Shown piece after piece: positions 54 through 32,656 of a stretch of DNA of 34,924 bases. The stretch spans positions 1 through 34,924 of the forward strand of contig CAZJXH010000004.1 of NCBI GenBank assembly GCA_964549475.1, in the 5' to 3' direction. Position numbers and translations under genes: made by a program. Origin of the DNA: an uncultured Oscillospiraceae bacterium (GTDB taxonomy: Bacteria; Bacillota; Clostridia; Saccharofermentanales; UBA5734). Position 1 is the stretch's first letter, and every line of letters starts with the position of its first letter. A model generated the notes under the pieces. The model worked only from the letters and a program-made list of their open reading frames with translations, did no database searches and had not been told where the DNA came from.

Positions 54-3000
54 ATGGAAGAAGCTGTTTTTATATGGAAAAACTGTACCTTGGTACAATT
101 ACAATGCTTAAAAAGCAAGAGTAGAATAACTACGTTGTATTATATATCTGGCAAGACAGATCTTGCAAATAAAAAAGAGGTGACCTATTTGAAAGGGAGA
201 ATCAACCGTTCTGACGGGATTTGCTTAATCCGGTTCAAATCTCTGACAATCCGTATTCTGGCGTTGTTCATTATAATCGGATTGTGTTTTTCTCCATATC
301 GCGCATTTGTATCCTCAGAAGGCGATATCGCCACACTGATCACAGGGAATGGATATTCCTTTGACTCTGCCAGCGGTATGCTGACTATTTCTACTGACAG
401 CGGAACAGCAAACTGGAGAAGCGACCCCGGCATCGCAAAAACCGATGTGATTACTGTTGTTGTACATAGCGGTGTGCTGAATATATCGGATAATGCGTTT
501 AATGCCTGTACTGCACTGACAGCGGCCACGCTTCCGTCCGGTCTGACATTGATCGGGGAATATTCCTTTTATAACTGCAGCTCTTTACAGACGGTTAACA
601 TACCATACGGTGTGACACGCTTAAAGTATGGCGCATTCCGCAGATGCGGAGCCCTCACAGCAGTTACAGTCCCGAGCAGTGTAAGTAAAATTGACGCTAT
701 GGCATTCTATATGTGTCCAAAACTATTAAGCGCCACGTTCCAGAGGACGGCTGCGCCTGCTTTTGGAGCGAACGTATTCTCGAAATATGCCGGCTTTAAA
801 ATCAACTATCCGTTGGGCGGCGCAGGATACACAAGTCTCGGCTATACCGCCGAGGGGGTCAGTATGGCGCTTGATATTGTCACCGGCAACGGATATACAT
901 TTAATCCGAACACCGATACATTGACTGTATCAAGTGACAGCGGCACGACAAACTGGAAAAGCGACAGCAATTTTAACAAGAGTGTCGTTAAGACAGTGGT
1001 GATTGGAGACGGCGTACAAAACATTCTTGACAGCGCATTTTCTGAGTGTACAGTGTTGTCGTCTGTCACTCTTCCGGCCGGGCTATCCGTAATCAAGGAT
1101 TATGCGTTCAATGGCTGCACTTCTCTAGGAGCGATCACCATACCAAATGGCGTATCCCGTCTCAGATATAGTGCGTTTACTGGCTGTACATCCCTTACAA
1201 CAGTCATCCTCCCCAGCACCGTAGCGACGATTGAGCGCCGCGTATTTTTTGGTTGTTCAAAGCTTATCAATGCCACCTTTATGGGGATAACCGCACCCAC
1301 AGTTGGAAGCTCTGCGTTTGGCAACTGCGCTGAAGATTTTAAAATCTACTATCCGATCAGCGGCACAGGGTATACGGGACTTGGTTATACGGCTGAGGCG
1401 ATTGATGTGACGCTGTCGACCGAAGGCTATTCCTTTGATTCCACAAGCGGCACGCTGACCATTGCAAGCAATGACGGCACAACAAATTGGAGAAATAGCA
1501 GTATTGCAAAAGATGCGGTGAAAACAGGGATCATTCAAAGCGGGGTCACGCTTATTTTGGACAACACTTTTAAAGATTGTATTTCTCTGACTTCCATTTC
1601 AGTTCCAGATGGCGTTACACATATCGGGAAATATGCATTTGACGGGTGTCATTCTTTGACAGGAATCGTCCTGCCCGGCTCCTTGACATCAATCGGAGAC
1701 GAGGCTTTCTTCAACTGTGTCAAGCTGGCGGCGATCTCTATTCCGGACGGTGTCACCACCATTGGGTGCGAGGCGCTGGCGAACACCGGCATAAGCTCAA
1801 TGACTATTCCGAACAGTGTTTTATTAATGGGACAAGGCGCATTTTGTTATTGTTCGAAGCTCACCTCCGTCACATTCGAAGCAGGCTGCCAATTGACCAA
1901 TATTCCGATCATTGCATTTTCTGATTCCGGACTGGCTTCAATTGATATTCCGGACAGCATCACTTCAATTGAATCAAGTGCATTCGACGGATGCGCCTTA
2001 TCGTCTGTTACTATTCCAAGCCAAGTGGCTTCTATTAAAAATAGTGCTTTCAAAAATTGCTCAAAGCTTTATGCGGCATCTTTTGAAGGGATCGCTGCAC
2101 CGATTCTTGGTACGAACGTATTTGACAACTGCCACACAAGCTTTAAAATATACTATTCAGTCGGCGGCACAGGCTATGGAAGCCTTGATTATCCGGCTGT
2201 GACCGACAAGGCCCCTGTTATGGGAGATGGCTATTATTTTGATACGGAAAGCGGTACATTGACGATATCCAGTGACAGCGGAATGGCAAACTGGAGAAGC
2301 AGCACGATAGTAAAAAGCTCCGTGCTTTCAATAATCATTGAAAGCGGAGCGAGTAACATTGCGGATGAAGCTTTTGAAGGATGCGCCTCGCTGAACACGA
2401 TTTTAATTCCCGAGAATGTAACTTCCATAGGAAGCCGTGCTTTTGAAGGATGCTCATCGCTGCTAACCGTCACCATTTCCAATAACGTTGATTCCATTGG
2501 GAGTTACGCATTCAGATATTGTACGTCCCTGGCAACAGTAACGATCCCTGCCAAGGTGATTTCTATCGGGGCTGGTGCATTTTATGGCTGCGGACAGCTC
2601 AACTCCGCCATTTTTAATCCTATTGCAGCTCCGTCTCTTGAAACCGGAGCCTTCAACGGCTGCCACGCTGGCTTTAAAATTTATTATCCCGCTAAGGGGA
2701 CAGGCTACGAAACCCTTGGTTACTCCGCCGAGGCTATTGGTGTATACACCATGGATGTAATCAATGGAACGGGAAGCGGTAAGTATGAGGTGGATGCCCG
2801 AGTGAGCATCAAAGCGGATGCAGCGCCAGATGGCAAGGTCTTTAATCGCTGGATTACTAATAACGGAGGGGCGTTCACTGACGCTGCAAGTGCGGTTACC
2901 ACCTTTACAATGCCTGCTGCAAAAGTAACCGTTACGGCAACATTCCGAGATGAGATGCAGTTTACCATCACCGCAAAAGCCATCAGCGGCGGCACTGTAA

Positions 3001-3551
3001 ATCCGGCCGGAACGGTGAGCGTCGCAGAAGGGCACGATGAAACCTTTGTTATTACGCCAAACACCGGTTATCGCATTGAATCCATCACCGTGGATGGAAT
3101 TAGCCAAGGCGTTGTACCTGCATATATATTTACAAAAGTCACAGCGAATCATGCCATAATGGCAACATTTACAAAAATCGAAAACAATGGCAATGACAAT
3201 GGCAGCGACGATGGAAATGGTAATAATAATGGTAATTTATCCTCTTCTTCTGGGACTTCGCCAGCACCTATTCCGGAGACGAACAGCAATATTTTGTCTC
3301 CTTCCCCTTCTGAGATTTCTCCGGCACCTGTTCCGGAGACGAACAGTAATATTTTGTCTCCTTCCCCTTCTGAGATTTCACCGACACCTGCTTCGGAAGC
3401 GATCAGTAATATTTTATCTCCTGCCATTCCTTCAGACCGTAAAGCCGGGGTCGTTACAACACTGCCATGGATAATCTGCGCGCTGCTTATAGCAGCATCA
3501 GCGGTCGCTGCGACAGTGATACTGATAAAAAGAAGGAAGACACTGCAATAG
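54..3551 (+). CDS. Large cell-surface leucine-rich-repeat protein (BspA-type LRR). It has four ~281-aa modules, a Listeria-Bacteroides repeat domain, a Pro/Ser-rich repeat linker and a C-terminal TM anchor. The true start is probably TTG at 189.
   Basis: The ORF track gives a 1165-aa ORF. By eye, a module (TGNGYxFD..SGT.T.S.DSGT.NW..., runs of AF..C..L..V.IP..V..I, ending ..FKIYYP..GTGY..LGYTAE) recurs four times. After the fourth module comes FNRWITNNGGAFTDAASAVTTFTMPAAKVTVTATF, typical of the Listeria-Bacteroides repeat fold, then a second beta-rich segment. Next is a low-complexity linker of 3 x SPAPIPETNSNILSPSPSEI, then a hydrophobic segment followed by KRRKTLQ. No LPXTG motif is present. 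An AAGAGGTG RBS lies 6 nt before an in-frame TTG at 189 and gives a signal-peptide-like N-terminus (KGRINRSDGICLIRFKSLTIRILALFIIIGLCF). There is no RBS before the ATG at 54. Confidence 0.8.
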   Translation: MEEAVFIWKNCTLVQLQCLKSKSRITTLYYISGKTDLANKKEVTYLKGRINRSDGICLIRFKSLTIRILALFIIIGLCFSPYRAFVSSEGDIATLITGNGYSFDSASGMLTISTDSGTANWRSDPGIAKTDVITVVVHSGVLNISDNAFNACTALTAATLPSGLTLIGEYSFYNCSSLQTVNIPYGVTRLKYGAFRRCGALTAVTVPSSVSKIDAMAFYMCPKLLSATFQRTAAPAFGANVFSKYAGFKINYPLGGAGYTSLGYTAEGVSMALDIVTGNGYTFNPNTDTLTVSSDSGTTNWKSDSNFNKSVVKTVVIGDGVQNILDSAFSECTVLSSVTLPAGLSVIKDYAFNGCTSLGAITIPNGVSRLRYSAFTGCTSLTTVILPSTVATIERRVFFGCSKLINATFMGITAPTVGSSAFGNCAEDFKIYYPISGTGYTGLGYTAEAIDVTLSTEGYSFDSTSGTLTIASNDGTTNWRNSSIAKDAVKTGIIQSGVTLILDNTFKDCISLTSISVPDGVTHIGKYAFDGCHSLTGIVLPGSLTSIGDEAFFNCVKLAAISIPDGVTTIGCEALANTGISSMTIPNSVLLMGQGAFCYCSKLTSVTFEAGCQLTNIPIIAFSDSGLASIDIPDSITSIESSAFDGCALSSVTIPSQVASIKNSAFKNCSKLYAASFEGIAAPILGTNVFDNCHTSFKIYYSVGGTGYGSLDYPAVTDKAPVMGDGYYFDTESGTLTISSDSGMANWRSSTIVKSSVLSIIIESGASNIADEAFEGCASLNTILIPENVTSIGSRAFEGCSSLLTVTISNNVDSIGSYAFRYCTSLATVTIPAKVISIGAGAFYGCGQLNSAIFNPIAAPSLETGAFNGCHAGFKIYYPAKGTGYETLGYSAEAIGVYTMDVINGTGSGKYEVDARVSIKADAAPDGKVFNRWITNNGGAFTDAASAVTTFTMPAAKVTVTATFRDEMQFTITAKAISGGTVNPAGTVSVAEGHDETFVITPNTGYRIESITVDGISQGVVPAYIFTKVTANHAIMATFTKIENNGNDNGSDDGNGNNNGNLSSSSGTSPAPIPETNSNILSPSPSEISPAPVPETNSNILSPSPSEISPTPASEAISNILSPAIPSDRKAGVVTTLPWIICALLIAASAVAATVILIKRRKTLQ
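3241..3420 (+). repeat. About three copies of a 60-bp tandem DNA repeat inside the LRR protein gene, encoding the Pro/Ser-rich stalk.
   Basis: Coordinates 3301-3360 and 3361-3420 are near-identical at the nucleotide level (cttccccttctgagatttc.ccg.cacctg.t.cgga..cga.cagtaatatttt.tctc). Coordinates 3241-3300 form a more diverged copy ending in the same ...ttccggagacgaacagcaatattttgtctc. Confidence 0.8.
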
Positions 3552-4929: not shown

Positions 4930-6858
4930 TTACTGCTCTTTGATTTCTTTCCTGTTTGTCGCAATCAATTCGGCAAGCTCATTCAAATAGACCCACCGTT
5001 CTGTTGCCTCATTCAGCTGGACTTCAAGCGTTTCTTTCCTTGCAAAGAGTTTTTGCAGTTTCTCGAAATCGCTCGAGGCCTCGTTTATTTCTTTTTCCAC
5101 ATTCACAAGGCTGTTTTCCAAGTTTGAAATGGTCTCGTCGATGGAATCATATTCTTTTTGCTCTTTGAAAGTGAACTTCAACGGCCTGTTTTTTTTATTC
5201 TCAGCGTTGTAATCCGATTTTTCTGATTTTGATTTGCTGTTGTTGTCTTTTACTATGGCATTCTCTTCTGCCATTTTCTTGTTATAATCGGAATAGCAGC
5301 CTTGAAACCGCCGGATCGACGCATTTCCTTCAAAAATAAAAAGCTTTTCGACCACTCGGTCCAGAAAATACCGGTCGTGAGAGACGGCGATGACTACACC
5401 CTGGAAATCGCTGAGATATCCTTCGAGAATGGTCAGAGTCTGAATGTCCAGATCGTTGGTCGGTTCATCCAGGAGGATAACGTTCGGCGCACTCATCAGA
5501 ATCCGAAGAAGGTAAAGCCGTCTTTTCTCGCCGCCGGAAAGCTTTGAAATAAGCGACCACTGCACCGCGGGAGGAAACAGAAAATTCTCCAGCATCTGGG
5601 CGGCGCTGATCTGTCCATCCCTGGTGGTCAGGTATTCCGCTTCATTTCGGATGTATTCAATCACGCGCAGGCTTTCGTCGATCTCGTCATTTTCTTGTGT
5701 GAAAAATCCAATCTTGACTGTTTCTCCGGTATTGACACAGCCGCGATTCGGCTCCAGACGTCCGGCAATGATTTTAAGCAGAGTCGATTTGCCGCTGCCG
5801 TTCGGTCCGATGATTCCGATGCGGTCATCGCGAAGGACGTTGTAGCTGAAATCGTCAATGATTTTGCGGTTGGAATAATCTTTCCCGATGTGCTCGAGTT
5901 CGATGGTTTTCTTGCCGAGCCGGGTGGTTCCGACACTGATTTCGATGTTTTCGTATGAACCCGCGGATTTTGTATCCCGCAAAGTCTCAAACCGTTCGAT
6001 ACGGGCTTTCTGTTTCGTCGCGCGCGCCTGCGGGCCGCGCTGCATCCATTCAAGTTCTTTGCGGAAAAGGCTCTGTCGCTTCCGATCCGAGGCGATATCG
6101 CTTTCTTCTCTTTCGGCTTTTAATTCAAGATATTTCTCATAATTTGTCAGATAGCTGTATACTTTCCCATTGTCGATTTCGAGAATCCGATTGCAGACAC
6201 GACGCAGAAAATACCGGTCATGTGTGACCATGAGCAAAGCGCCTTTCCGGTTGTTCAAATATTTTTCGAGCCAGTCCACCGTATCATTGTCCAGCTGGTT
6301 GGTGGGCTCATCCAGAATCAGCAGGTTCGCCGGACTGATCAGCGCGCTGGCCAGTGCGATTCGTTTTCTCTGTCCGCCGGAAAGAGTTCCGACAATTGCA
6401 TCAAAGTCAAGCACGCCGAGTTTTGAAAGAATGGTTTTTGCTTCGCTTTCGATTGTCCAGGCTTTCATCGCATCCATTTTCTGGGTGACCTGGAGAAGAT
6501 TTCTCTCCCATGCCGGATCACCGGGATGCCCGTTGAATTCCTGGAGAGTGTGTTCATATTCCCGAAGCAGGTTCATGATGGGCGACGTGCCTTTGAAAAT
6601 CTGTTGAAGAACGGTTATTCCCGGGTCAAAAGTCGGATTTTGCGATAGGTATTCCATCGAGACCTTGTTTCCGGTTGTAATTTTGCCGCTGTCTGGATTT
6701 TCCTCCCCGGCAAGCAGTTTCAGAAGCGTTGATTTCCCTGTCCCGTTGATGCCGATAACGCCGATTTTCTCCCCTTCGTCAATGCCGATAGAAGCCTCGC
6801 TGAACAAGACTTTTTCGCTATATGCTTTTGATAGTTTTTCGGCGGATAGGATATTCAC
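4930..6858 (-). CDS. ABC-F family ATPase. It has two ABC cassettes and no TM domain, plus a C-terminal coiled-coil extension (Uup-like).
   Basis: Walker A motifs GINGTGKST and GPNGSGKST are present. There are two signature motifs, LSGGQRKRIALA and LSGGEKRRLYLL, and a Walker B LLILDEPTN in both halves. The ~90-aa C-terminus is Lys/Glu-rich and coiled-coil (…EKLQKLFARKETLEVQLNEATERW…). Confidence 0.85.
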   Translation of the reverse strand: MNILSAEKLSKAYSEKVLFSEASIGIDEGEKIGVIGINGTGKSTLLKLLAGEENPDSGKITTGNKVSMEYLSQNPTFDPGITVLQQIFKGTSPIMNLLREYEHTLQEFNGHPGDPAWERNLLQVTQKMDAMKAWTIESEAKTILSKLGVLDFDAIVGTLSGGQRKRIALASALISPANLLILDEPTNQLDNDTVDWLEKYLNNRKGALLMVTHDRYFLRRVCNRILEIDNGKVYSYLTNYEKYLELKAEREESDIASDRKRQSLFRKELEWMQRGPQARATKQKARIERFETLRDTKSAGSYENIEISVGTTRLGKKTIELEHIGKDYSNRKIIDDFSYNVLRDDRIGIIGPNGSGKSTLLKIIAGRLEPNRGCVNTGETVKIGFFTQENDEIDESLRVIEYIRNEAEYLTTRDGQISAAQMLENFLFPPAVQWSLISKLSGGEKRRLYLLRILMSAPNVILLDEPTNDLDIQTLTILEGYLSDFQGVVIAVSHDRYFLDRVVEKLFIFEGNASIRRFQGCYSDYNKKMAEENAIVKDNNSKSKSEKSDYNAENKKNRPLKFTFKEQKEYDSIDETISNLENSLVNVEKEINEASSDFEKLQKLFARKETLEVQLNEATERWVYLNELAELIATNRKEIKEQ

Positions 6859-6887: not shown

Positions 6888-8504
6888 CTAGCTGTATAAA
6901 ACAGCTTTGATTTTTGCGATCTCTTCGCTTTCGAGGTATTCATCGTAGGTCATGAGTTTGTCGATGACCCCTTTCGGTGTGATTTCAATGATCCGGTTGG
7001 CAATCGTCTGAACAAACTGATGGTCATGTGAAACAAACAGAACCGTCCCTTTGTAGTTGATCAAACCATTGTTCAGCGCAGTGATGGATTCGAGGTCGAG
7101 ATGGTTCGTCGGTTCGTCCAGCAGCAGTGTATTCGCGCCGGACAGCATCATCTTGGCGAGCATGCATCGGACCCGTTCGCCTCCTGAAAGAACGGACGCT
7201 TTTTTTTGCGCTTCCTCCCCGGAAAAAAGCATTCTCCCGAGCCACCCGCGGATGAATGTCTCGTTCTGGTCTTTGGAATATTGCCGCAGCCAGTCAATGA
7301 TCGACAATTCACTGCCATCGAAATAGTCCGCATTATCCTTTGGGAAATAGGCCTGGGATGTGGTGATTCCCCACTTGAACTCGCCGCTGTCCGCAGTCAT
7401 CTCCCCGATCAAAATCTTGAAAAGCGCTGTTTTTTCGAATCCGTTCGGACCGACAAGAGCAATCTTGTCCCCCTTGTTCACCGTGAAGCTGATTTTTTCC
7501 AAAAGAGGCACTCCGTCGAATGATTTACTGATTTCGTGGACTCTTAGCAGATCGTTCCCGACCTCCCTATCCTGTTTGAAGTCGACAAACGGGTATTTGC
7601 GGGAGGAGGGCCGGATATCTTCCAGCGTCAGTTTTTCCAATTGTTTTTTACGGGATGTCGCCTGTTTTGATTTGGAGGCGTTCGCACTGAACCGCTGGAT
7701 GAATTCTTCCAGATCCTTCCGCTTCGCTTCGATTTTCTTATTCGAATCCTTTGTCTGCTGAAGGATCAGCTGGCTGGATTCATACCAGAAATCATAATTC
7801 CCGGCATATACCTGGATTTTGCCAAAATCGATATCTGCAATGTGAGTACATACTTTATTCAAAAAATGCCGGTCATGGGAGACAACAATGACGGTGTTTT
7901 CAAAATTGTAAAGAAAATTCTCCAGCCAGGTGATGGAAGCGACATCCAGATGATTGGTCGGTTCATCCAGAAGCAGGATCTGAGGATCTCCAAAAAGCGC
8001 CTGGGCGAGCAATACCCGGACTTTCTCGCTGCTGCCGACTTCCGCCATCTTTTTATAGTGATATTCTTCCCCTATGCCAAGTCCGTTCAGCAAAGTGGCG
8101 GCTTCTGTCTCGGCATTCCATCCATTCATTTCAGAAAATTCGGATTCCAGCACGGCAAGCTTGATGCCGTCCTGCTCGGAGAAATCCGGTTTGGAATATA
8201 GTTTCTCTTTTTCTTCGATAATTTCACAAAGCCTTTTATGCCCCATTAAAACTGTTTTCAGAACTTCATATTCATCAAATTCATAATGATTCTGTTTCAG
8301 CATCGCAAGCCGGCTGTTGGCCTCGATGAAAATTTCTCCTTTGTTGGCTTCCAGTTCGCCGGAAAGAATTTTTAGAAACGTAGATTTACCGGAACCGTTT
8401 GCTCCAATCAAACCATAACAATTGCCGGGTGTGAACTTGATGTTCACATTGTCGAATAACGCACGTCCTCCATACCGTAAGGAAATGCCACTGGCTGTAA
8501 TCAT
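6888..8504 (-). CDS. Second ABC-F family ATPase, of the YheS/YbiT size class.
   Basis: Motifs GANGSGKST and GPNGFEKTALFK, signatures LSGGERVRCMLAKM and a second one in the N-terminal half, and LLLDEPTNHLD x2. No membrane domain. The start ATG is at 8502-8504. Confidence 0.85.
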   Translation of the reverse strand: MITASGISLRYGGRALFDNVNIKFTPGNCYGLIGANGSGKSTFLKILSGELEANKGEIFIEANSRLAMLKQNHYEFDEYEVLKTVLMGHKRLCEIIEEKEKLYSKPDFSEQDGIKLAVLESEFSEMNGWNAETEAATLLNGLGIGEEYHYKKMAEVGSSEKVRVLLAQALFGDPQILLLDEPTNHLDVASITWLENFLYNFENTVIVVSHDRHFLNKVCTHIADIDFGKIQVYAGNYDFWYESSQLILQQTKDSNKKIEAKRKDLEEFIQRFSANASKSKQATSRKKQLEKLTLEDIRPSSRKYPFVDFKQDREVGNDLLRVHEISKSFDGVPLLEKISFTVNKGDKIALVGPNGFEKTALFKILIGEMTADSGEFKWGITTSQAYFPKDNADYFDGSELSIIDWLRQYSKDQNETFIRGWLGRMLFSGEEAQKKASVLSGGERVRCMLAKMMLSGANTLLLDEPTNHLDLESITALNNGLINYKGTVLFVSHDHQFVQTIANRIIEITPKGVIDKLMTYDEYLESEEIAKIKAVLYS

Positions 8505-8602
8505 TTTTATACCATCCTTCTATTTAACTCGGCACATTATAGCATGGAACAGGGAAAATACCAAATGAATCAAAGGGACGGCAGGTTGTGTAATCACTCA
8601 GG

Positions 8603-8713
8603 ATGCAACATGGGGACGGTTCTTGTGTTGCATTTTAGCTTATTTCGTTTATGCAACACAAGAACCGTCCCCATATTGCACTAATCCATTTCTTTTCGTA
8701 ATCGATTGCCCTG
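8603..8713. mobile_element. Truncated copy of a MITE-like palindromic repeat, with the central hairpin and right-hand terminal inverted repeat present and the left TIR absent. It overlaps the 3' end of the TSCPD gene.
   Basis: Hairpin arms atgcaacatggggacggttcttgtgttgcat (8603-8633) and atgcaacacaagaaccgtccccatattgca (8651-8680) are reverse complements with one mismatch, separated by a 17-nt loop. They are followed by ccatttcttttcgtaatcgattgccctg (TIR-like, 8689-8713). The same hairpin and TIR are found at 14848-14945. Confidence 0.7.
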
Positions 8714-8980
8714 GAGGGACAGTTCTCTTTTTTCTTCCTCATAAGCTTTTCTGACTGCGACGGCAAGCTGGTCGGAACAGGAGGTATCTCTTTCGTCACA
8801 TTGAATCCCTTTGAATTTCTCCTCGATCTCCTCCACCGTCATTCCTTCAATGATCCGGCTTATCGCCTTCAGATTTCCGTCACAGCCTCCCCGGAAAGAA
8901 ACCTTTCGAATAATATTCCCATCCAATTCAAAGAAAATCATCGATGGGCACACTCCCTCGGTTTCATATTCATGTTTCAT
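8681..8980 (-). CDS. Small four-cysteine protein of the TIGR03905/TSCPD-domain type. Its last ~17 codons and stop codon are encoded by the repeat element.
   Basis: The 99-aa ORF (…FELDGNIIRKVSFRGGCDGNLKAISRIIEGMTVEEIEEKFKGIQCDERDTSCSDQ…) matches the pattern I recall for the TIGR03905 family. The C-terminal …LSLQGNRLRKEMD* is read from the reverse complement of 8681-8722, inside the repeat TIR. Confidence 0.6.
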   Translation of the reverse strand: MKHEYETEGVCPSMIFFELDGNIIRKVSFRGGCDGNLKAISRIIEGMTVEEIEEKFKGIQCDERDTSCSDQLAVAVRKAYEEEKRELSLQGNRLRKEMD

Positions 8981-14733: not shown

Positions 14734-14762
14734 TTGAAGGATGAATTTTCCTGTGATATTAT
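14734..14762 (+). promoter_or_regulatory. Candidate sigma-A promoter for the CoADR-rhodanese operon, upstream of the MITE insertion.
   Basis: TTGAAG (14734-14739), a 17-bp spacer, and TATTAT (14757-14762). It is followed by an imperfect palindrome TATGAG-n14-CTCATA (14764-14790). Confidence 0.4.
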
Positions 14763-14803
14763 ATATGAGTGCAAATGCATACGCTCATAAACAGGATTGG
14801 AGG

Positions 14804-14945
14804 CAGGGCAATCGCTTCCGAAAAGAAACGGATTAGTAGCAGATGGAATGCAACATGGGGACGGTTCTTGTGTTGCATAAACGAAATAAAATGAAATATA
14901 AGAACCGTCCCCATGCTCCATTTCTTTTCGGAAGCAATTGCCCTG
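14804..14945. mobile_element. Complete MITE-like non-autonomous element of about 142 bp. It has 25-bp terminal inverted repeats, a nested internal hairpin and 9-bp target-site duplications. It is inserted in the 5' UTR of the CoADR-rhodanese gene.
   Basis: Left TIR cagggcaatcgcttccgaaaagaaa (14804-14828) and right TIR tttcttttcggaagcaattgccctg (14921-14945) are reverse complements, 24/25. Perfect direct repeats GATTGGAGG flank them at 14795-14803 and 14946-14954. The inner hairpin is tggggacggttctt / aagaaccgtcccca. There is no ORF inside. The right TSD supplies the GGAGG RBS for the ATG at 14962. Confidence 0.75.
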
Positions 14946-14961
14946 GATTGGAGGACGAAAT

Positions 14962-16632
14962 ATGCGAATCATTGTAATTGGCGCAGTCGCTGCTGGCACC
15001 TCTGCCGCGGCAAAAGCACGAAGAAATACAGAAAACGCAGATATCATCATTTATGAGAAAGACCGCTTTATTTCTTATTCTGGTTGCGGCATGCCCTATT
15101 ATATTGGTGGAGTAGTGGAGCGTTCCGATGATCTGACACCACGGGACCCTGCATTCTTCAAGAGTAAATACAACGTGGATGTCTTTATTTTACATGAGGT
15201 ACTTTCGATTCATCCGGATAAGAAAATCTTGGAAATAAAAAATCTCTCCACTGGCCAAGTATTCACGGATACCTATGACACCCTTATTCTTGCCACCGGT
15301 GCAAAAGCTGTTGTTCCACCAATTAAAGGGGTTAACGGTTCGAACGTTTTTATGCTGCGCAATATCAACGATATGAACCGGATTCATTCTTTCATTGAAT
15401 CGAAGAAACCACAATCTGCGGTGATCATCGGCACAGGTTTCATCGGCCTCGAGGTTTGTGAAAACTTGAAAAGACTCGGGATTGATATAACTATGATTGA
15501 AAAGTTGCCGCAAGTCACACCGGGACTTGATGATGATATGGCCGGTTATGTGGAAGAACATCTTGAAAAAAATGGGATTTCTGTTCTGACTTCTGTTTCT
15601 GCAGAAAAAATCACCGCGAACGGAGTGATATTATCGGACGGTTCCTCGGTCGATGCGGAAATGATCATTGTATCCGTAGGAATTCGACCCGAAACGGAGC
15701 TTGCTAAGCAAACAGGAATTGAACTTGGCATATCCGGTGCCATCAAGGTTGACAAGAAGATGCGAACAAACCGGAAAGATATTTTTGCCTGCGGAGATTG
15801 CATCGAACAATTTCATGTTGTCACAGGGAAACCTGTTTATCGTCCATTGGGGTCTACTGCGAACAAAACGGGTCGAATCGCAGGAGATTGTGCAACGAAC
15901 GGCAGTCTTGAATTTCGAGGAATACTTGGTACTGGAATTTTTAAAGTTTTCGATTTGGCAGTTGCTCAAACCGGACTGTCCGAACGCGAAGCGCTGGAAC
16001 AAGGATATGACGTTGCTGTCTGCCATAATATCAAACCGGACAAGCCGGAATATATGGGAGGAAGAGAAATGGTCATCAAAGGCATTGCCGACAAAGCGAC
16101 CGGGAGACTTCTGGGAGCCCAGATCGTCGGGTTTGAGGGAGTCGATAAACGGATTGATGTTTTCGTAACAGCTATTACCTTTAAGGCAAACGTCGAAGAC
16201 CTGTTCCATCTTGATCTGGCTTATGCACCGCCTTTTTCCACTACGAAAGATCCGGTCATGTATACCGGCATGATCCTGGACAATGCCATCCACCGATCCA
16301 GGCCATTGATAACGGCGCAAGCGCTGGACGCCCTGATACAATCCGGTGAAAAGGTTGAATTGATTGATGCAAGAGTCTCTTCCCAGTATGGGAAAGGACA
16401 TATCGGCGCAGCGGATTCGATTCCCCATACAGCCCTGAGAGAAGCCGCAGCGAACCTGGATCCGAATGTCTTTACCGTGACATACTGCAACAAAGGAGTC
16501 ACCGGGAACGCTGCGCAGAATATTCTGATCAATCGGGGCTTTAAAAAAGTATACAACCTTTCGGGTGGACACGAACAATTTAAAAAATTCATGATTAAAA
16601 ACAGCAAGAAACCAGGTGGAAATAATAGTTGA
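14962..16632 (+). CDS. CoA-disulfide reductase / NADH-dependent persulfide reductase fused to a C-terminal rhodanese domain (CoADR-RHD).
   Basis: The N-terminus MRIIVIGAVAAGTSAA (FAD GxGxxG) and redox Cys in SYSGCGMPYYIGG are as in CoADR/Nox. A second NAD(P) fold (AVIIGTGFIGLE) is present. C-terminal ~100 aa form a rhodanese domain with the active-site loop TYCNKGVTGN. The ORF-track start (TTG 14938) lies inside the repeat. The ATG at 14962 has a GGAGG RBS. Confidence 0.85.
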   Translation: MRIIVIGAVAAGTSAAAKARRNTENADIIIYEKDRFISYSGCGMPYYIGGVVERSDDLTPRDPAFFKSKYNVDVFILHEVLSIHPDKKILEIKNLSTGQVFTDTYDTLILATGAKAVVPPIKGVNGSNVFMLRNINDMNRIHSFIESKKPQSAVIIGTGFIGLEVCENLKRLGIDITMIEKLPQVTPGLDDDMAGYVEEHLEKNGISVLTSVSAEKITANGVILSDGSSVDAEMIIVSVGIRPETELAKQTGIELGISGAIKVDKKMRTNRKDIFACGDCIEQFHVVTGKPVYRPLGSTANKTGRIAGDCATNGSLEFRGILGTGIFKVFDLAVAQTGLSEREALEQGYDVAVCHNIKPDKPEYMGGREMVIKGIADKATGRLLGAQIVGFEGVDKRIDVFVTAITFKANVEDLFHLDLAYAPPFSTTKDPVMYTGMILDNAIHRSRPLITAQALDALIQSGEKVELIDARVSSQYGKGHIGAADSIPHTALREAAANLDPNVFTVTYCNKGVTGNAAQNILINRGFKKVYNLSGGHEQFKKFMIKNSKKPGGNNS

Positions 16633-32522: not shown

Positions 32523-32573
32523 TCTTTTTTCCTCCCTTTCATTTTACCTCTTTCTTCTGTTCTGGTCATTTCA

Positions 32574-32645
32574 TTCGTCCTGGGTTTCTCGCATGGATTC
32601 GTCCTGGGTTTCTCGCATGGATTCGTCCTGGGTTTCTCGCACGGA
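32574..32645. repeat. Three perfect or near-perfect tandem copies of a 24-bp unit, ttcgtcctgggtttctcgca(t/c)gga.
   Basis: 32574-32597, 32598-32621 and 32622-32645. The third copy has a single T>C change. It lies 52-123 bp upstream of the nitroreductase ATG on the minus strand and immediately upstream of the -35 of the plus-strand promoter. Confidence 0.85.
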
Positions 32646-32656
32646 TTCTTCCCCTA

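Follow-up and report, generated by a model that had tools for sequence, protein, structure and literature searches.

How does a protein-coding gene come to end inside a mobile element, and what is the element that it ends in? Both questions are raised by the 3' end of a small TSCPD / TIGR03905 gene in the window, that is, the whole 34,924-nt stretch of DNA analysed here. A reading of the sequence alone had placed the last codons of this gene in a MITE with a second copy at 14804-14945, and this assignment was borne out. We refer to the latter as copy A and to the one at the TSCPD gene as copy B (Table 1).

The two element copies

The stretch 8603-8633 is identical to 14848-14878 at all 31 positions, and the 25-nt TIR at 8689-8713(-) matches 14921-14945(-) at 22/25 positions (three differences), both as the sequence-only reading had reported; compared with 14804-14828(+), the same TIR carries two differences. 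No arm and TIR matches of this kind are expected in shuffled sequence, and the 15-mer ATGGGGACGGTTCTT occurs exactly four times in the window, always within copies A and B. A third copy was not seen within the 35 kb. A JGI contig (99.09% identity over 19 kb) and a Logan contig (100%) carry this sequence too, and an assembly artefact therefore does not account for it. The Logan contig breaks at 8684, inside copy B, as expected of a multi-copy repeat.

Copy B had been described as 5'-truncated, with its left TIR missing. Instead, a 7/9 target duplication of 9 bp encloses a copy of 132 nt that starts with CAGG and ends with CCCTG, and the left TIR, though decayed, is still there with its terminal CAGG and a partial match, GtAATcaCT. 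The chance of finding a 7/9 repeat plus CAGG within 100 nt is estimated at about 5e-4. Copy B could still be a true fragment, left by repeat deletion or recombination, whose apparent target duplication consists of neighbouring degenerate cores of the REP-like hairpin described below: the left TIR is almost unrecognisable, and both flanking 9-mers hold the core fragment GGGAC(G/A)G, possibly as independent REP remnants. We consider such an origin unlikely, as the repeat is 9 bp long, like the perfect duplication of copy A, borders directly on the terminal CAGG at the left end of the element and on CCCTG at the right end, and resembles the REP core in its left 9-mer only up to the exact element boundary. 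Removal of the element, moreover, brings a TGA into frame, at which the protein would have a length usual for its family.

The copies were also said to share one orientation, so that recombination between them would excise the 6.2-kb mgtA-DUF1003 / arsR-arsP-thioredoxin block in between. Copy B fits the reverse complement of copy A better (110 identities, score 74) than copy A in direct orientation (100 identities, score 49.5), and the asymmetric, non-palindromic loop AAACGAAATAA is inverted between the two. The copies therefore stand in opposite orientations, and recombination across their longest homology is predicted to invert the block, not to excise it; direct homology is confined to two 31-nt stretches. 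In a 99%-identical strain, the arrangement of both copies is unchanged.

A promoter-like site (14734-14762) precedes copy A and the ribosome-binding site of a CoA-disulfide reductase-rhodanese gene (ATG 14962) follows it, the element placing a hairpin of -88.7 kcal/mol in the 5' leader of this gene (region 14734-14964). Between strains of 99.1% identity, copy A (window 14804-14945, locus L001 4040-4190) differs by four substitutions and a 6-nt indel and copy B is identical, which suggests faster change or gene conversion at copy A. A mismatch hotspot between the two strains is a set of three 60-nt tandem repeats (3247-3426) near the 3' end of a 1165-aa ORF (54-3551) with LRR_5 and Flg_new_2 domains and four modules of about 540 nt. 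At 32573-32652, a 24-nt unit, ATTCGTCCTGGGTTTCTCGCATGG, occurs three times in tandem, the copies being 94-100% identical.

Table 1. Coordinates of the element copies, their parts and the neighbouring gene features in the window.
Feature	Position	Strand	Details
Copy A, MITE, 142 nt	14804-14945	+	Both TIRs present
Copy A TIRs	14804-14832 / 14917-14945		29 nt, 27/29 matched
Copy A target-site duplicate, left	14795-14803		GATTGGAGG
Copy A target-site duplicate, right	14946-14954		GATTGGAGG, 9/9; holds GGAGG ribosome-binding site of CoA-disulfide reductase-rhodanese gene
Copy A REPIN-like doublet	14847-14922		32-nt arms, 84% complementary (imperfect hairpin)
Copy A REP cores	14858-14868 / 14901-14911	+ / -	
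Copy B, probable ISAs1-derived MITE, 132 nt	8582-8713	-	Inverted relative to copy A
Copy B target-site duplicate, left	8573-8581		AAGGGACGG; 7/9 compared with 8714-8722
Copy B target-site duplicate, right	8714-8722		GAGGGACAG; minus strand encodes L-S-L
Copy B decayed left TIR	8582-8602		CAGG + TTGTGTAATCACTCAGG
Copy B REPIN-like doublet	8603-8680		30-nt arms 8604-8633 / 8651-8680, 97% complementary
Copy B REP cores	8613-8623 / 8661-8671	+ / -	
Copy B right ISAs1-type TIR	8685-8713	-	CAGGGCAATCGATTACGAAAAGAAATGGA on minus strand
TSCPD / TIGR03905 gene, 99 aa	8681-8980	-	Residues 1-89 native (P87L); 90-99 QGNRLRKEMD and TAG element-encoded
Displaced native stop TGA of TSCPD gene	8570-8572	-	In frame after removal of element and one duplicate
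Solitary REP core at native gene end	8716-8726	+	GGGACAGTTCT, 1 mismatch
Promoter-like site of downstream ABC-F gene	8536-8564	-	TTGGTA-17-TGcTATAAT; outside element, intact

Element ends of the ISAs1 type

Scanning metagenome contigs with the TIR pattern gave no match for the exact form and 13 loci for a relaxed form. The relaxed pattern had no match in viral contigs, and plasmids and phages yielded no blastn match to copy A. One of the loci, L139, which stems from another metagenome and not from the genome of the window, contains a complete IS of 1268 bp (593-1860) with perfect 20-bp TIRs (CAGGGCAATCGCTTACGAAA). Its 378-aa ORF matches the NCBIfam model NF033564, 'ISAs1 family transposase', with 397.7 bits, and also contains Pfam PF13808 (DDE_Tnp_1_assoc) and PF01609 (DDE_Tnp_1). 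The TIR of the window element agrees with that of this IS at 21/22 positions. L134, a second locus, contributes a MITE of roughly 195 bp that shares these TIRs and has a different interior. A clear target duplication of their own is seen at neither locus.

Ends that begin with CAGGG and direct repeats of about 10 bp are characteristic of ISAs1 (PMC11946415, PMC6305408). Both TIRs of copy A and the one at 8685-8713 start with CAGGG, and the 9-bp target duplications (9/9 at copy A, 7/9 at copy B) fall within the 8-10 bp of the family. At 132 and 142 nt, the copies are small and without coding capacity for a transposase, which sets them apart from the IS, as does their interior, a REP doublet unrelated to it. 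Among the large ORFs of the 35-kb window, which were annotated in part, no transposase gene, of the ISAs1 family or otherwise, was seen. Because its TIRs match, at 21/22 positions, those of a real IS encoding an ISAs1 transposase, we classify the element, judging by sequence, as an ISAs1-derived MITE.

In several metagenome contigs of termite-gut type, a 33-nt palindrome (CAGGGCAATCGCTTACGAAAAGCGATTGCCCTG) recurs that consists of two ISAs1 TIR tips back to back (L129 189-221, L130, L131, L135 and L137); it may be a minimal MITE.

The rewritten end of the TSCPD gene

The TSCPD protein is a clear member of its family, scoring 107.6 bits against TIGR03905 (cut-off 67.7), with residues 4-79 covering profile positions 2-77 of 78, and 86.2 bits against Pfam TSCPD. 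The gene now ends in ...LSLQGNRLRKEMD, its last ten codons and the TAG (8681-8713) lying within the element TIR. The minus-strand ORF 8681-8980 therefore does enter the element, as proposed earlier, but only for 33 nt, and stops there rather than reading through. Likewise, the segment 8681-8722, which had been assigned to the TIR as a whole, is TIR up to 8713, and the three codons at 8714-8722 (LSL) are the right target duplicate.

Removing 8582-8722 restores a gene end that reads GAG GAA GAA AAA AGA GAA CCG TCC CTT TGA, or EEEKREPSL*, within the reconstructed pre-insertion sequence ...GAACCGTCCCTTTGATTC..., and gives a protein of 89 aa. Joining the left duplicate to 8723 and onward also turns the solitary REP core at this place into a perfect GGGACGGTTCT. 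The duplicated target encodes LSL and the reconstructed native end PSL. The sequence-only reading had spoken of a replacement of about 17 residues; by the reconstruction, the insertion lies after the last native codon, so that ten residues were gained and one was altered from P to L, and the gene end, read in this way, is extended from 89 to 99 aa rather than replaced.

Homologous proteins agree with the shorter length. The 120 homologs listed are 83-107 aa long, mostly 83-93, and align to no more than 80-89% of the query. In an alignment of 26 TSCPD sequences, the proteins end 3-12 residues past the conserved AYE in all cases but P0084, whose last two residues MAFFT shifts by a gap to the final alignment columns. 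In the two relatives that come closest (78% and 75% identity), the protein ends in AYEKELKK* and AHEEEARADK*, and neither the element nor the REP core is found 3' of their stop codons. The tail is absent from all homologs examined, and the claim of the sequence-only reading that the C-terminal residues and stop codon derive from the element is upheld. An empty-site strain was not found, the protein search returning nothing between 100% and 78% identity.

Could the tail nevertheless be the native C-terminus, with its likeness to the element being coincidental or the element end itself gene-derived? C-termini vary in sequence and length across the TSCPD family, and AlphaFold (pLDDT 91.9 for the 99-aa protein) models the tail as more of the last helix, with a pLDDT of about 79, a prediction that says little about function. 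We give this explanation next to no credence, as the 25-nt sequence in question also terminates copy A on both sides, at a distance of 6 kb, the same TIR sequence recurs at the termini of an ISAs1 IS on an unrelated contig from a metagenome, and no homolog has the tail.

The native end REPSL* overlaps the solitary REP core, in the same E-P-S frame as the intragenic doublets described below. The gene end therefore appears to be nested, a REP unit having come first and the MITE second. Overall, we believe with good confidence that insertion of an ISAs1 MITE, extending the TSCPD gene, best explains the locus. A non-autonomous ISAs1-family MITE of about 140 bp, with TIRs CAGGGCAATCG... and an inverted doublet of a REP-like hairpin as its interior, would have been mobilised in trans by a DDE transposase, whose gene would have CAGGGCAATCGCTT ends, generating a 9-bp target duplication. 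It would have entered the last TSCPD codons at a spot that already held the solitary REP unit, right after the last native codon and about 3 nt 5' of the native TGA, in an ancestral site that was 141 bp shorter (...AAAAGAGAACCGTCCCTTTGATTCATTTGG...). The TGA would thereby have moved 141 nt downstream, and translation would now enter the TIR for 30 nt and end at the TAG inside. Subsequent decay of the left TIR would have left copy B immobile. A 30-bp hairpin now directly follows the new stop, between the TSCPD gene and the intact ABC-F promoter, where it might affect the transcript.

The 181 nt at the TSCPD gene end fold with -68.9 kcal/mol (z = -8.2), a very stable hairpin between two genes. 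Directly 3' of the TSCPD gene lie two adjacent genes for ABC-F ATPases on the minus strand (4930-6858 and 6888-8504). An exact occurrence of the GGGACGGTTCT 11-mer in an ABC-F gene, at about 7041-7051(-), was set aside as a chance match; it lacks a flanking stem and is part of the coding sequence for KGTVLF in the ATPase.

The effect on the TSCPD gene is modest, and a MITE altering a C-terminus is a kind of event already known; the locus offers a base-resolved example of a MITE rewriting a protein C-terminus. The more interesting result is the repeat family inside the element.

The inner hairpin, its RAYT genes and related repeats

Scanning one genome per species with the pattern GGGACGGTTCTT-N20-50-AAGAACCGTCCC revealed the hairpin, with its invariant core GGGACGGTTCT, at no fewer than 117 loci; the hairpin-bearing loci hold 385 REP cores in 0.86 Mb. 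The unit consists of a conserved 11-13-nt loop, RGGGACGGTTCTT, and a 7-bp stem whose sequence differs by genome. Among 113 units, one per locus, the stem positions pair in 70.3% of cases compared with 46% in shuffles, and the stem covariation score is 0.606, where shuffled units reach 0.21 and slid controls 0.16-0.22. Folded as ssDNA, a single unit forms a hairpin on either strand and places the core in its loop. As is typical of short dispersed hairpins of the REP kind, units occur as inverted doublets, and they occur as arrays as well; the GTAG tetranucleotide at the 5' foot of classical REP hairpins is absent from the position matrix. The hosts comprise Lachnospiraceae, other Clostridia, Bacilli and Negativicutes; Prevotella, Muribaculaceae and Porphyromonadaceae; and Micropruina, Coriobacteriia and other Actinomycetota. 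Single loci, resting on MAG binning, were assigned to Atribacterota and Spirochaetaceae, the latter on a 1.5-kb contig.

Three arrays illustrate how units are arranged. One locus has a tandem array of 19 REP units in 850 bp (L082 5233-6091), another an array with a 21-nt period (L011 4449-4564 and 5710-5783), and a third has three (+) units followed by five (-) units, forming a giant palindrome (L048 1364-1650).

Other identities for the hairpin were tried and rejected, a known structured RNA among them. No Rfam family reached its gathering score in the whole window, and Rfam in E-value mode gave only generic long-hairpin matches to miRNA models. Resemblances to boxA, sigma-54 and parS sites, and an ISL3-type IR considered for GGTTCTTTTG, were dropped as locus-specific and because the flanks are inverted rather than direct.

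Clustering of all ORFs of the 117 listed loci uncovered one family of 260-aa proteins, found in five of them, that matches Pfam Y1_Tnp and the NCBIfam model 'REP-associated tyrosine transposase' (84.7 bits, cut-off 80). At all five of these hairpin-selected loci, which lie in genomes other than that of the window, core units bracket the RAYT gene in inverted orientation. Complementing this selection by a blind test, we ran a homology search with one RAYT, which returned 5642 homologs at E <= 1e-20, many named RayT at the source, and fetched four without a prior look at their DNA. In three of the four, an exact copy of the 11-mer core lies no more than 100 nt from the gene, in Bacillus oleivorans on both sides, and the fourth has a core with one mismatch 10 nt past the stop; an exact core is expected by chance in 3.8 kb with a probability of about 0.002. 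Based on this flanking of RAYT genes, the hairpin is REP-like and the doublet REPIN-like, and the MITE in the window carries one such doublet.

The association raises the question of whether the 132-142-nt unit as a whole could be an extended REPIN, moved by a RAYT, an HUH tyrosine transposase, and not by an ISAs1 DDE enzyme. Its interior is a doublet of the family that flanks RAYT genes, and doublets with long extra palindromic arms occur elsewhere (L004, L026). The perfect 9-bp duplication at copy A and the match of the outer 20-22 nt to the ends of a real ISAs1 IS make this highly improbable; HUH/IS200-type transposition makes no target duplications. Capture of the hairpin by an ISAs1 MITE, if true, would provide it with a second, DDE-based route of spread.

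The hairpin is also read in frame within genes of other genomes. A dihydrolipoyl-dehydrogenase-like (LpdA-like) gene (L015 6951-8000) reads through three doublet insertions without a stop, and the insertion HGDGSCVSLAETQEPSP is located in a turn according to alignment with a PDB structure. Each of seven other doublets is embedded in an ORF that stays open for more than 100 codons to either side of it (L012, L020, L028, L032, L052, L088 and L111). Six of these seven ORFs score above Pfam's gathering threshold, with the domains CobT, radical-SAM methylthiotransferase, MatE, SPASM maturase, MbnB/DUF2063 and acyltransferase_3; the Pfam match spans the insertion in four of the six, and domains flank it in the other two (MatE, radical-SAM/SPASM). 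For the seventh, L052, the only Pfam match is to DUF4450; it stays below threshold and lies far upstream of the insertion. Most ORFs read the first arm as GDGS and two read it as GRFF, and the doublet translation is mostly GDGS...EPSP/RTVP, as in HGDGSCVS..ETQEPSP. Two more apparent cases (L025, L034) look like spurious frames and were left out of the count.

Taken together, these observations may reflect a REP/RAYT system for which we found no description, a reading that we hold tentatively and with somewhat less than even confidence: its loop is invariant across phyla, its stems are lineage-specific and covary, its RAYTs are 35-60% identical, its doublets lie in enzymes, and an ISAs1 MITE has captured it. 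The literature searchable here, limited in extent and thus no proof of novelty, held no description of the REP core, and a full-text search for the core string returned unrelated primers only. Nunvar 2010 does not mention Firmicutes, and Bertels 2017 notes only Group 1 RAYTs also in Clostridia. The hairpin would indicate that Gram-positive and gut or rumen bacteria harbour a large REP-RAYT family whose copies are tolerated inside proteins, and raises the questions of how the RAYT recognises the hairpin, why the core does not drift and how frequent repeat-born protein segments are. REPIN-RAYT work stresses lineage-specific co-evolution, which would make a core frozen across phyla, if true, unexpected.

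Among known systems, Rickettsia palindromic elements (RPE) and other in-frame MITEs or REPs (ERIC, Correia, BOX) are similar in that a small palindrome joins coding sequence without destroying the gene, and the inner hairpin is likewise read in frame inside real enzymes of other genomes. They differ in sequence, host phylum and transposase, and the TSCPD gene has gained a 10-residue C-terminal extension ended by the element's own stop rather than an internal insertion. With the REP/REPIN-RAYT systems of E. coli and Pseudomonas (Nunvar 2010; Bertels and Rainey 2011), the family shares inverted doublets, many dispersed copies and a single Y1 (IS200-like) transposase gene with inverted units on its flanks. 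In contrast to these, it has no GTAG tag and places a conserved 11-13-nt loop between lineage-specific stems, and its RAYTs have a C-terminal extension of about 120 aa; classical REPs are lineage-specific, whereas the core is identical here across Bacillota, Bacteroidota and Actinomycetota, among others. CGTC REPs (Di Nocera et al. 2013, PMC3733652) resemble it in that the core complement, AGAACCGTCCC, contains CGTC, and in forming head-to-head dimers that are sometimes intragenic. Their stems measure 8-9 bp and their loops 4-5 nt, one end carries an unpaired tag, and they were reported without a transposase and as absent from Firmicutes (PMC3733652), whereas REPs of the type seen in the window carry the conserved block in the loop and are associated with a RAYT.
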